From contig OY969811.1 in NCBI GenBank assembly GCA_963703315.1, positions 3,808,001-3,872,000 on the forward strand: a stretch of 64,000 bases of DNA, written 5' to 3'. The translations under genes were made by a program, and so were the position numbers. Positions 59,578-64,000 of the stretch are shown piece by piece. Each line of letters starts with the position of its first letter. The stretch's first letter is position 1. The stretch is from an uncultured cyanobacterium. Lineage in GTDB: Bacteria; Cyanobacteriota; Cyanobacteriia; Pseudanabaenales; Pseudanabaenaceae. Under the pieces are notes generated by a model that saw only the letters and a list, made by a program, of their open reading frames with translations, was not told the DNA's origin and searched no databases.

Positions 59578-60925
59578 CTAAAGTTTTGAATAGTAGTCTC
59601 GAATTTTGTATGACATCAATTTTCGACGCGCTTCCAAAAATTCTGCGTAGTCTTCGATGTTTTTAACCTCCATTCCATCGGGCAGACAATGATCTGCAAG
59701 GTTCTTATTTAACTCACTATAATTCACGATGCCCCCATAAAAGGCTTGCTGAGTCTTACATTGCTCTTGTAGAGTTTTAAAATATTGATCTGGCGAACGG
59801 TCTTTAATTGCAATGTTAATTTCACTCTGCATCATGACGTAATTGGCAATCTGGTTATATTGACCTTTTTCTAAGTTGTTCCGCTTGAGATAGTTTTTTG
59901 GAAATATATGGTGAATGTCTCCTCTATTCATTATCAAATCTCTCACAGTAATATCTTTAGAAAGAAATCCCTTGTTGTTGCCATGAATTTGAGAGGCAAG
60001 AAACACTTTAAAATATGGGCTGCTGGCGACAGAAGTATCCATTTGTTGAGGAAGCCCAGCATCCCAGAATGCTTGAGATAATTCAGCAGCTTCTATCTCA
60101 GATTGATAGCGACTCATTCCCAATTCATCAATTCGTCTAATATCAGTATCAAATGTTGATTCAGGTGAGCCAGAATATCTACCTGTGAGGACAGACATGA
60201 CTAGCCACTTACGCACATGGGATTCAATCTTAGCAGGAGGTGTACTTTTTGATTTGAGAACTAAGTAAATTACATAGGCAAAGTTGATGGCATTGCGAGA
60301 ACGAATCATTGAAGGTTCAACAAATCCAGCAGATTTCAAAATCATAATGAACTTCTTGAAATTAGTCTCATTCATGAATTTGAGAATACCTTCGTCTAAT
60401 TTTCTGAAAGACTCCTCAGCGATCTCATCTTCATAGGTTCGAGTTTCAAAATTTCTGCCTGAAAGCAAAGCAACAAGATCTTGCAATCGCCCACGTTTAA
60501 ACTCTGAAGTAAAAGCGACCCTAAGCATATCTGAGTAAGACGGATCGTATAAATCATCGTTCTCATCCTTTAGCCAAGACATCTTTTGAAAATATGCGGT
60601 TGCGCCAAATTCTTGATCAAGGTCAGCCAACTGTTGATAAAACTGAGGAGCTTTAGCCAAATGGCAAAAATAATCAATACATTTGCGAAGCTTATTGCCA
60701 CCATAAGTTTCGTTAGCGGCAATTTTTGACATAACGAAATCTGCTTGATTGAGAACAGCTCCCTGCGAATTGATGCGAATAAAAATTTCTGTAACTACCT
60801 CAATATCTAGATCTGAGTTAAGTTCAATAAGCCCAATATGGTTATTAACTACTCCTCGTAACAGTTCCAGACTATTGTAGATAGCGTCTTGGTCTGTATT
60901 TTCATTGCGATCGCAGTATTCCCCT
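59578..60925 (-). pseudogene. C-terminal part of a GmrSD-like (DUF262+DUF1524/HNH) nuclease, interrupted by IS110
   Basis: The frame stays open upstream of 60732 up to the IS junction: GEYCDRN...[11 protein letters not shown] (DUF262 end); DIHHIFPK...AN...IN HNH-like motif. Confidence 0.9.
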
Positions 60926-60932
60926 TGTATCT

Positions 60933-61140
60933 AGGAGGAAAAGTAAAGGATAAAATCTTTACTACAATCCGAAAAAGCAAAAGCAGAGATAAACTCGATC
61001 TGCCCCTAGGGACACCAAGCCCGTTTTGTAGATAGAGTCGTCTCTGCTTAAACAGTGGAAACAAGTAAAGACTGGACAGTATCAGAGGTCGCCCAACGGG
61101 TAAACCTGCATTCACAAGGATAGTTCAATACCACTGATTG
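60933..61140 (+). ncRNA. Bridge RNA of the IS110 element (ends approximate)
   Basis: 5' hairpin AGTAAAG/CTTTACT; target loop closed by AAGCAGAGA/TCTCTGCTT with guides TCTGCCCCT and TTTGTAG; donor loop closed by CAGTGG/CCACTG with guides GACAGTATC and ACAAG. Confidence 0.85.
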
Positions 61141-61175
61141 CTTGATGGACAAATCTAGCAAGAGGACTGCCCCCA

Positions 61176-62162
61176 ATGAACAATAACAATGAAGTATATG
61201 ATGTTTTAGGAATAGATATCAGCAAAGCCAAATTTGATGTTGCTCTAATCCAAGGCAACGCCAAAATCAAGAGCAAAGTATTTGCCAACAATCCTGAAGG
61301 ATTTGCTGAATTACAAGAATGGCTAAACCTTCAAAATGTGACAAACTTGCATAGTTGTATGGAAGCTACCAGCACTTACGGCAATGGGTTAGCTAGATTC
61401 TTAGTAGAGGCAGGATACAAAGTAAGTATTGTTAATCCATCCCGTCCCAAAGCCTTTGGCAAGAGTGAGTTAAGTCGTACAAAGACTGACCGTGCTGATG
61501 CTAAAGTCATTGCTAGATTTTGTGCAGCCTTAAAACCTGCTCTTTGGACACCACCAGCATTAGAAATTGAGCAACTACAAGCATTGGTGCATCGTTTAGA
61601 TAGCTTAACTGCTATGCAGCAGCAAGAGCAGAATCGTCTTGCTACGGCTGATCCAATTTTGGTTGAGGCAATTAATGCTCACATTGATTTTCTCAAAGAG
61701 CAAATTGAGATGACCAAAAAATTGATCCGTCAGCACTTTGATCAACACCCTCATTTGAAATCTCAACGGGATTTGTTGACTTCTATTCCTGGTATTGCTG
61801 AACTGACCGCAACTATATTACTGGCGGAAATTCGGGATATTTCTGCCTTTGATACTGCTGATCAACTGGCAGCTTTTGCGGGTTTAACTCCCCGTGAGTT
61901 CTCATCTGGTTCTTCGATTCATGGTAAGCCACGTTTATCTAAAATTGGTAATTCGCGTTTGCGTAAAGCTTTGTTTATGCCTGCGATTGTTGCCCGTCGT
62001 TATAATTTGCCGATTGCTGCTTTCTGCGCTCGCCTTACGGCTAAGGGTAAGTCCAAAATGTCTGTCATTGGGGCTGTCATGCACAAGCTGTTACGACAGG
62101 TCTTTGGCGTTCTCAAGTCTCAGCGTTCTTTCGACCCAAATTTTGTTCAAATTCCCTCTTGA
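61176..62162 (+). CDS. IS110 family DEDD recombinase/transposase
   Basis: GIDISK, MEATS, KTDRADA (RuvC-like DEDD); SIPGI, AFAGLTP...SSGSS (Tnp domain with catalytic Ser), GNSRLRKAL. Confidence 0.97.
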
Positions 62163-62187
62163 CTTTTTGGTACTCAAGACAGTATCT
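62159..62187 (+). promoter_or_regulatory. -35 box of the circle-junction promoter in the IS right end
   Basis: TTGACT-N18-TATCT; the -10 becomes TATCTT only when the right end joins the left end. Confidence 0.65.
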
Positions 62188-62636
62188 ACAAATTTAAGTA
62201 CTTTAAAATCAGGTGCAAAAATCTCTGAGATATCTGAAACCCAAGATTTATCTTTAACAATAGCTGGGTTGGAAACCTCAAATCGTTGTTCTTGTGGATT
62301 AAAGGCAATAGTAATTTTAATCCTCTGATAGTCTTTATTGATGACGTACATTCCCAGAATTGCTGCCATCAATGCTGTAACTCTCTGCTGTCCGTCAATT
62401 AAGATTCGTTTGCCTTGAGACGTTGTACCGTCTTTCAGTTTTACCGTTGGATTGCGCCACGCAATTAGATACCCAACTGGATAGCCTTGATATAACGAGT
62501 CGATTAAATCTCTAACTTTTGAACCATTCCAAACAAAAGGACGCTGTATTTCTGGGATTGCAATTTCCTCAGATCTAACCCAAGTTAGTAGAGTTTGAAT
62601 AGGATGCTGATTAACGGAATATTTTTGAATTGACAT
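62187..62636 (-). pseudogene. N-terminal part (150 aa) of the GmrSD-like DUF262 protein, interrupted by IS110
   Basis: [27 protein letters not shown]; the last 31 aa of the track ORF are IS-derived. Confidence 0.92.
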
Positions 62637-62677: not shown

Positions 62678-62872
62678 TTACCTAATTACACAACGGTGCT
62701 TCAATGGCTTCGACTCATCCTGAGCTAAGAAAGTTTTACCAAATCCCCCCTGTTCGATCGCCTTCAAAGCGCGATAACGCTCTTGAATTTGTAACTTAGC
62801 GCCGCATTGAGTGCAAAACTTGGTTGTTATTGAGTTTGAATGATCGCAAGCAAGACAAAGACAGTTACTCAT
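62678..62872 (-). pseudogene. N-terminal fragment of a 4-Cys-prefix Ser/Thr kinase
   Basis: C..C...N....FC..CG, then RY...K.I.QGGFGKTFLA.D......CVI, stopping at the catalytic-Lys position. Confidence 0.8.
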
Positions 62873-63034: not shown

Positions 63035-63409
63035 CTATTGAACGATCACTTTGCCTTGCATACCAGCTCCACGGTGAGGAGAGCAATAGTAAGCAAATTC
63101 ACCAGCTTCATTGAAGGTGGACTCTAGCTCAGCCTTAGGCTTTTGAGCCAACTTCTTGTGAGAAAGTTCTTCATGACCATCAAATACGACGTTGTGAGGG
63201 AAAGCTTTGTTATTCACCCATCTAACAGTGTCGCCAACTTTGATTGTGACTACTTTAGGCTCGAATACTAGCTGACCACCATCGGAACCCATCTTTACGG
63301 TGACAGTATCAGCCGATGCAGGAGATGCGGTGATGAACAAGCTACCAATAACAAACAAAAGGCTAGCGATCGCTAAGCCTAGCTTTTTCGCAAAAGAAGA
63401 AATATTCAT
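63035..63409 (-). CDS. petE: Plastocyanin
   Basis: Signal peptide, PHNVVF, YYCSPHRGAGM copper ligands. Confidence 0.98.
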   Translation of the reverse strand: MNISSFAKKLGLAIASLLFVIGSLFITASPASADTVTVKMGSDGGQLVFEPKVVTIKVGDTVRWVNNKAFPHNVVFDGHEELSHKKLAQKPKAELESTFNEAGEFAYYCSPHRGAGMQGKVIVQ

Positions 63410-63586: not shown

Positions 63587-64000
63587 TTAATAGTATATCT
63601 TTCCGCCGCCCCAGCCGATACCTTTGACTTTAGGTTCGTAGAGGATATAACCTGCAATTAACTTGAGGTCATTGTCGGTGAGACCACGCATAGTGGGGAA
63701 AATATCGGTACTTTTGAGGCTGGGGTGAACGTCATAGATTTCAGTTACACCGTCATAGGTAGTAGGCTTCTTCATGAAATCCACTAAACCAAGCACATTG
63801 TTCCGCACTGGATATGCACCAGCCAAAGATTCAGGAGAAAGGTTAACGTTCGGATTGGTGAAGGTCGCGCCGCCGAGGTGGCAGGTGGCACAAGCATTAG
63901 AGAATAATTTCTTGCCCTTAGCGATGTCTTTTTGAGTTAAGACAATATTGGTCTTTTCGTTGAGGGGAACGGTACGCAACTCGATGGGGATATCGGCGGC
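63587..64000 (-). CDS. psbV: Cytochrome c550 (5' end beyond the window)
   Basis: CATCH heme motif, PTTYDG, HPS..S.DIFP.MR, WGGGKIYY. Confidence 0.93.
   Translation of the reverse strand, partial: AADIPIELRTVPLNEKTNIVLTQKDIAKGKKLFSNACATCHLGGATFTNPNVNLSPESLAGAYPVRNNVLGLVDFMKKPTTYDGVTEIYDVHPSLKSTDIFPTMRGLTDNDLKLIAGYILYEPKVKGIGWGGGKIYY

Follow-up and report, generated by a model that had tools for sequence, protein, structure and literature searches.

A cyanobacterial IS110-group insertion sequence that very probably works like the bridge-recombinase element IS621

This analysis concerns a mobile element in a 64,000-nucleotide stretch of contig OY969811.1 from an uncultured cyanobacterium of the Pseudanabaenaceae (the whole of this stretch is called the window, and coordinates are those of its plus strand unless another strand or genome is named). 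Positions 60926-62187 (+) hold an IS110-group element of 1262 bp, a length that includes the single CT core at its right end, and it is very probable that this element is an autonomous insertion sequence (IS) working like IS621 of Escherichia coli, an IS110-group member in which a bridge recombinase acts together with a 177-nt bridge RNA (PMC11208160, PMC11208158). The agreement between guides and insertion sites, covariation among relatives, intact catalytic residues, seven near-identical copies in one genome and scarless boundaries form the basis for this assessment. All the defining features of an IS110-group bridge-recombinase element that can be tested in sequence appear to be present, and the element is intact and recently active. 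A previous sequence-only reading had proposed a complete IS110 system with a legible RNA guide, and the positions it gave for the CT dinucleotides, flanks, tips, 5' hairpin (60942-63), stems and four guide strings were all confirmed base for base; parts of what it said about the target were revised, as described below.

Boundaries and copies of the element

The element lies between CT dinucleotides at 60924-25 and 62186-87, starts with TGTAT and ends with ACAGTAT-CT, and is flanked by TATTCCC-CT (left target plus core, 60917-60925) and ACAAA (right target of the window insertion, 62188-62192). Its non-coding left end of 250 nt (60926-61175), which begins with the right donor TGTAT and is predicted to encode the bridge RNA, and a right end of 25 nt leave the remainder to one open reading frame (ORF) of 328 amino acids. 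In the right-end region (62159-62187), the -35-like TTGACT at 62159-64 overlaps the stop codon, and positions 62179-87 form the left donor ACAGTAT-CT.

The window's own genome (G000, a single 4.57-Mb contig) has seven near-identical copies that all terminate at exactly the same bases, and CT is found on both sides of every one of them. Variation across the seven is confined to one substitution (window coordinate 60997, in one copy) and a 1-nt indel, an additional C after 61169 in two copies; the window copy is identical to four others, and the remaining two differ from it by one change each. In a congener (G401) the corresponding site is empty, with regions 96% and 89% identical to the left and right 500-nt flanks lying adjacent to one another and separated by one dinucleotide, CC there versus CT in the window, so the insertion added 1260 bp and a second core dinucleotide, and duplicated nothing else. 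Because the seven copies share their ends and G401 provides an empty site, the boundaries are independently fixed. Scarless flanking by a single core dinucleotide and a long left end combined with a short right end, free of long terminal or subterminal inverted repeats, place the element in the IS110 group; membership of the IS1111 (seekRNA) group was considered and rejected, the right end being only 25 nt long.

The recombinase

The ORF (61176-62162) matches the Pfam families DEDD_Tnp_IS110 (PF01548; E 8.5e-27, 94.3 bits, cut-off 29) and Transposase_20 (PF02371; E 1.4e-26, 93.1 bits, cut-off 21.3). Only two matches were found among solved structures, both over residues 9-321: the ISCro4 transposase (PDB 9t56), which is the best at E 3.5e-76 and is a protein comparison only, and the IS621 transposase (E 7e-73), with which the product shares ~44% identity (136 of 312 aligned positions, from a hand count of the identity line). 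Residues D14, E63, D105, D108 and S244, the last of which is located within SSGSS, align with D11, E60, D102, D105 and S241 of IS621, the residues of the composite active site according to Hiraizumi et al. (PMC11208158). The protein, a homologue of the IS621 and ISCro4 enzymes, thus combines the DEDD residues with the catalytic serine domain of the IS110 group.

A predicted three-part bridge RNA in the left end

Related elements came from three sources. A species-genome collection supplied 23 loci whose best matching segments were 53-99% identical, and named cyanobacteria of the Pseudanabaena, Phormidium and Chamaesiphon type accounted for most of these. Of 401 genomes drawn from the phylum, 16 (G000 included) matched at E <= 1e-40, and four plasmid elements were taken from named records of Salmonella, Pantoea, Deinococcus and Leptolyngbya. 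A covariance model with a structure of 36 pairs drawn up for this analysis was built from seven close sequences, and 17 elements were then aligned to it. In the resulting consensus of 17 sequences, 92.6% of the cells are standard pairs and 30 of the 36 pairs have changed on both sides; none of 500 shuffles reached the observed value on any of five measures, and pairing fell to 30-44% in controls whose partners had been slid by 1-3 columns. The model also detected the left ends of all four fetched plasmid elements (58.3, 39.4, 32.8 and 16.5 bits), and each orthologue, when folded individually, formed a 5' hairpin, a target module and a donor module. The single-sequence fold of the window RNA (-66.7 kcal/mol, z = -2.7) is only modestly better than chance; covariation supports the fold strongly. 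RNAalifold, run on an unguided MAFFT alignment of 14 left ends, had shown the donor loop only in part, since divergent rows were out of register, and that alignment gave way to the model-guided one.

The three parts that had been proposed for the left end are therefore retained, with compensatory changes to support them. The first is a 5' stem-loop of 7 bp (60942-60963) that is present in every orthologue's own fold. The second, the target-binding loop module (60981-61049), is built from an outer stem (60981-90/61040-49), an inner stem (60993-96/61035-38) and a terminal hairpin (61009-11/61020-22), and these helices 1-3 show changes on both sides in 9 of 10, 4 of 4 and 3 of 3 pairs. Its left strand carries the left target guide plus core guide TCTGCCC-CT (TCTGCCCCT, 60999-61007), which equals the left flank of five of the six other copies and covaries in orthologues. 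On its right strand the guide region (61025-61033) opens with TTTGTAG (61025-31), in which GTAG (61028-31) is the reverse complement of CT-AC and TTT (61025-27) is a possible extension, and closes with the handshake bases AT (61032-33).

The third part, the donor-binding loop module (61053-61136), has an outer stem (61053-58/61131-36), an inner stem (61070-74/61121-25) and a stem-loop (61086-89/61104-07 plus 61091-94/61098-101), together helices 4-7. The sequence-only reading had placed GACAGTATC at 61075-83 and ACAAG at 61114-18 in this loop and matched them to the donor junction. That match holds, with the left donor guide ACAGTATC(A) at 61076-61084, in the same sense as the left donor ACAGTAT-CT, agreeing at 8 of 9 positions, and the right donor guide AT-(TC)-ACAAG, followed by the handshake GA (61110-61120), pairing discontiguously with CT-TGTAT at 7 of 7 positions across a 2-nt bulge. 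Strands of both loops are thus complementary to the target or to the joined ends and are accompanied by handshake guides, as in the IS110 group.

Insertion sites in the window's genome

Read in the direction of the element, the other six copies have left flanks ending ...GCTCTGCCC-CT in five cases and ...GCTCTACCC-CT in one, so that five of the six sit at TCTGCCC-CT and the sixth at TCTACCC-CT; the right flank starts with AC at all seven copies. The single G-to-A difference at the sixth site would give an rG:dT pair, a type of mismatch reported as tolerated in IS621, whose native target is the 11-mer ATCAGGC-CT-AC and whose guides are a left one of 9 bases and a right one of 4 (PMC11208160). 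The programmed target of the element studied here is likewise an 11-mer, TCTGCCC-CT-AC, because the extra AAA is unmatched at the other six copies and in orthologues. Matches to this extension amount to 1, 0, 1, 2, 0 and 1 of its 3 bases at the other six copies and to 2, 0, 0, 1 and 1 of 3 in the orthologues L008, L009, L010, L012 and L013, and it is matched in full only in the window copy. An extended right guide was consequently rejected as a general rule, and of the natural target previously proposed, ~TCTGCCC-CT-ACAAA, the first eleven bases stand and the terminal AAA does not.

Occupancy declines with mismatches to the guide. Across the genome, 5 unoccupied N7-CT-AC sites have a perfect left arm, a further 58 differ from the guide at one position and 236 at two, and the occupied fractions are 5/10, 1/59 and 1/237, respectively. 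Since the right flanks of the copies are unrelated to one another, they represent separate insertions and not one duplicated segment.

The target sites sit in a dispersed repeat, as ATGCTCTGCCCCT occurs 12 times against an expectation of 0.14. The repeat unit of ~178 bp is composed of two long hairpins (AGGGGCAGAGCATTCCC...GGGAATGCTCTGCCC and GGGCAGAGCATTTGCG...CGCAAATGCTCTGCCCCT), a build that offers the target outward at both unit ends, and the usual targets of the element are the two ends of this hairpin repeat. The arms of the double-hairpin repeat are GGGCAGAGCATT and AATGCTCTGCCC, and many variant ends of the form AATGCT[C/T/A]T[G/A]CCC-CT-AC are present. The repeat also forms a tandem array near plus-strand genome positions 3,985,000-3,985,700, where six copies lie on the minus strand at a spacing of 131 bp. 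Outside the window, two pairs of elements (G000:C1:3075044-3077747 and G000:C1:2714875-2717575) are arranged head to head, their left ends separated by a target repeat of 179 bp in the first pair and 176 bp in the second, with a single repeat unit occupied at both its ends in each pair.

The window copy and the gene it splits

The window copy itself is an off-target insertion. Five of the seven bases of its left arm TATTCCC match the guide, and all seven of its right arm CT-ACAAA match the extended TTTGTAG. The element separates the two parts of a minus-strand gene: an N-terminal part (62188-62636), whose 149 codons match GmrSD_N (PF03235; E 3.9e-22), and a C-terminal part of GmrSD/HEC-05 type (59578-60925), whose match to GmrSD_C is weak (E 0.0035) and below the Pfam cut-off. 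Both parts are matched by the PADLOC profile HEC-05 (9e-20 and 9.7e-11). When the element is removed in silico a single open frame of 598 amino acids results, and the gene is uninterrupted in G401; the insertion thus inactivated a restriction-type defence gene of the GmrSD/HEC-05 type.

One explanation for the choice of this site is a one-armed half-match, in which pairing of the core and right arm CT-ACAAA with UUUGUAG offsets the two mismatches in the left arm. The extended right guide does match the site at all seven positions, IS621 extends its right-guide pairing at some sites (PMC11208160), a core with one matching arm suffices for IS621 in vitro according to a preprint (bioRxiv 10.64898/2026.08.31.748434), and AAA follows just 8 of the 236 unoccupied two-mismatch N7-CT-AC sites. 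Set against this, it is a single event, the extension finds no match at the other six copies or in orthologues, and a 3-nt A-rich match is cheap in an AT-rich genome, so the half-match is a credible account that we put at somewhat below an even chance.

The left flank of the window copy also contains CAGTAT (60914-60919), six bases of the left donor ACAGTAT lying 4 nt out of register with the core, which is probably a chance occurrence. Beyond the split gene, the minus strand encodes a 64-amino-acid zinc-ribbon protein (62678-62872), a plastocyanin-type copper protein (63035-63409, 2.8e-23) and a cytochrome c-550 (63587-63979, 2.2e-52).

Guides and flanks across related elements

The tips of the related elements are nearly invariant. 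The left tip is TGTAT in all elements with a readable left boundary, with one exception (TGGAT), and the right end is ACAGTAT-CT at all 18 related loci where it was read, L036 having ACAGCAT-CT; CT-AC is found at these 18 loci and at the seven own copies. The left guides, by comparison with the flanks at which the elements reside, change together with their sites. Guide and flank are identical for TAAACCC (twice, L009 and L021), ATTATGC (L016), ACCGCGA (L018), CCCGCCC (three times, L034, L035 and L037) and CGTGTCC (L038). Guide ATTGCCC occurs with flanks ATTACCC (L012) and ATTGCCC (L013), AAGCAAG with AAACAAG (L036), ACGCATC with ACCCATC (L039), and GCAGCCC with GCAGCCA (L008) and ATAGCCT (L023); GAAACCC, at a flank reading ACCGCGA (L010), is the one clear miss. 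Readings of the four plasmid elements gave the guide/flank combinations CGACATC/CGACATC, CAACTTC/CAACTTC, TTCACGG/CTCACGG and TGTCTCG/TCTCACG. Over 11 distinct left guides and 22 sites the mean match of a guide to its own flank was 6.0 of 7 bases, versus 2.8 of 7 for foreign flanks, and none of 20000 permutations reached the observed agreement.

The remaining pairing segments vary in the same manner. In L036 the donor guide and the right end alike read ACAGCAT, and in L067 the right guide is GAAG and the flank CT-TC. In the handshake described for IS621 (PMC11208158), a donor-loop base pairs with target position 7 and target-loop bases pair with donor positions 6-7. Correspondingly, the donor-loop base that follows ACAAG is complementary to target position 7 (G/C in most elements, T/A in L018, C/G in L036), and the AT after GTAG sits opposite the donor AT. 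Two expectations that the sequence-only reading had set for itself, that other copies would lie at guide-matching sites (five of six at TCTGCCC-CT, one at TCTACCC-CT) and that flanks would covary with guides, were borne out by these comparisons.

The miss at L010 has a peculiar setting. One metagenome-assembled genome (G089) hosts both L010:749 and L018:760, which are 69% identical and have the same donor, and L010 does not occupy a site that fits its own left guide, GAAACCC; its flank reads ACCGCGA-CT, which is exactly what the co-resident L018 targets. Counts in G089 are 14 for ACCGCGACTAC (4 for the reversed control) and 4 for GAAACCCCTAC (24 for the control). Guidance in trans, recombination between the elements and misassembly are each possible explanations of this site. 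A wider proposal, that natural bridge elements use their guides more loosely than a picture of one target per element implies, with the window copy inserting through a right-arm half-match and an L018-type target loop guiding an L010 circle in trans, strikes us as doubtful.

A different account of the whole system holds that the left end is a mere 5' untranslated or regulatory region and that the protein alone reads the repeat ends, flank matches being a by-product of repeated insertion into a single repeat family. The six on-target sites in G000 all come from one repeat family and therefore, taken alone, show a site preference and not RNA guidance, which is what this account would expect. It is, however, made very improbable by the 7-nt guide changing together with its flank in 11 orthologue states, by the parallel covariation of donor guide, right guide and handshake base, by the position of the guides in loops framed by stems with compensatory changes, and by the experimental demonstration of RNA guidance for the homologue IS621 (PMC11208160).

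Some relatives depart from the common layout. In L034:978-1480, L035 and L037, which are 60%-identical orthologues, the left end is ~250 nt longer through short tandem repeats that separate the TGTAT end from the target loop, with unoccupied copies of their target (GGTGAACCCGCCCCTAC) close by. At L035:1280-1458 the region of the right donor guide has GACTCTCG in place of CACAAGG, and the copy has probably decayed. Just upstream of the L013 element, on the other strand, L013:264-431 (minus strand) contains another bridge-RNA-like match, scoring 58 bits.

A putative junction promoter and the proposed cycle

Joining the ends in silico produces the circle junction ...ACAGTATCT/TGTAT..., where the window element shows TTGACT-18-TATCTT, with TATCT at 62183-87 and the last T supplied by the first base of the left end. 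A sigma-70-like consensus match was found at 11 of 12 in-silico circle junctions (in 6 of these the -10 lies wholly in the left end), compared with 0 of 12 junctions of flank and left end and 1 of 12 junctions of right end and flank. The sole circle junction without the site is that of L013, whose right donor is mutated; at L013:748 the left tip is TGGAT, not TGTAT, and the in-silico junction promoter is lost. In the integrated window no sigma-70-like site was found on the plus strand near either end by the same criteria, hence none for the bridge RNA there. The junction site, as a consensus match only, fits the promoter described for IS110 elements.

In the proposed cycle, excision would join the right and left ends and thereby create a sigma-70-type promoter (-35 TTGACT, -10 TATCT/T across the junction) that would transcribe a bridge RNA of ~200 nt from the left end and then the recombinase. 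The donor-binding loop would pair with the joined ends ACAGTAT-CT-TGTAT and the target-binding loop with TCTGCCC-CT-AC, on both strands in each case, and a tetramer of the DEDD/Ser recombinase would swap strands at the CT core.

Weighing the evidence

Several observations count against an IS621-like mode of action. The left donor guide agrees with the donor at only 8 of 9 positions, with A where the core has T. The minimum-energy fold of the window RNA pairs six left-guide bases, AUCUGC, with GUAGAU of the right guide and handshake; this pairing is specific to the window guide sequence and absent in relatives, and so the expectation that guides fall in internal loops holds for the orthologue consensus and is contradicted by six bases of the window's own fold. 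The pair counts come from an alignment fitted to the model devised in this analysis, which favours the structure; the independent single-sequence folds agree, however. The orthologues are mutually related, so that the permutation and shuffle figures overstate independence, and the sites of two relatives match their guides poorly (L023, 4/7; L010, 1/7). A scan of 60700-62400 against Rfam 15 (E up to 10) returned no bridge-RNA match, it not being known whether Rfam 15 includes such a family, and gave only two chance-level matches (PhrS, E 0.39, and a group II fragment, E 3).

Public sequencing runs were consulted as contigs. In those of 4 (of 24) runs neither joints nor a circle junction nor an empty site turned up, and they gave no direct evidence of the RNA or of recombination either. 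Contigs of RNA-run X6 that cover the left end (60921-61227) and other parts of the element carry flank and variant letters; they do not demonstrate a discrete transcript and speak neither for nor against expression. Run contigs with loose ends at 60921 show other left flanks (...GCTCTG and ...GAATTG before CCCCT) that agree with the guides and are not independent.

An inert relic or assembly artefact, with no recent insertion, would be in keeping with the 5/7 left-guide match of the window site and with the lack of an excision product in the contigs of the 4 runs, and is a most unlikely reading given an intact ORF, identity to four copies and a single change from each of two others, a split gene that is contiguous in G401 (96% and 89% flank identity) and yields 598 amino acids on in-silico removal, and X1 run contigs that span both junctions at 100% identity, X1 being possibly the source sample and hence not independent.

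Comparison with known systems

An autonomous element working like IS621 accords with many shared details. The two have in common their domain order, catalytic residues, long left and short right ends and CT core; the succession of 5' stem-loop, target-binding loop and donor-binding loop; a left guide of 7+2 nt, a 4-nt right guide GUAG for CT-AC and the handshake AU after GUAG; and a discontiguous right donor guide in which 9 RNA bases serve 7 DNA bases (Durrant et al., PMC11208160). They further share a repetitive palindromic target and the donor 14-mer ACAGTATCTTGTAT, as printed in a donor oligonucleotide in PMC13396178, and the putative junction promoter seen in silico would be another likeness. 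This agrees with the donor identity proposed in the sequence-only reading; a 'distant' blastn search for the element in 5,426 E. coli genomes gave no DNA match, so the identity rests on the oligonucleotide in that source. Unlike IS621, the element has the left guide TCTGCCC versus ATCAGGC, a cyanobacterial host, a protein of ~44% identity, and a target that is a double-hairpin unit of ~178 bp and not a repetitive extragenic palindromic (REP) sequence; in the window's subgroup the predicted -10 crosses the junction by one base and is not contained within the left end.

ISPpu9 and ISPpu10 of Pseudomonas putida (PMC12288879, bioRxiv 10.64898/2026.03.19.712850) are IS110 elements also described as having several copies in one repeated palindromic intergenic sequence, with a stem-loop lying 5' of the target, a likeness drawn from the published descriptions. 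Occupancy of both ends of the repeat parallels the REP targeting of IS621 and ISPpu9/10. Elements of the IS1111 group, or seekRNA elements, share the recombinase family and the RNA-guided principle with the element described here, and unlike it have the RNA in a long right end together with long subterminal inverted repeats (PMC11208160), whereas here the RNA region is in the left end and the right end has 25 nt.

Significance

The mechanism class is already known, the family having been described in 2024, and no new mechanism is added by this analysis. No paper on such an element in cyanobacteria or in Pseudanabaena was found, and the supplements of Durrant et al., which cover thousands of IS110 elements, may list this one or its kin. 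What the element offers is a natural data set for a system of relevance to engineering: a recently active orthologue from a different phylum that has the donor of IS621 and another target, eleven natural guide/target pairs, a handshake base that covaries in nature, occupancy graded from perfect sites to those with one or two mismatches in a single genome, and a natural off-target inactivation of a defence gene. In this way, the element could serve bridge-recombinase engineering as another orthologue and could be used as a marker of genome plasticity in these cyanobacteria.

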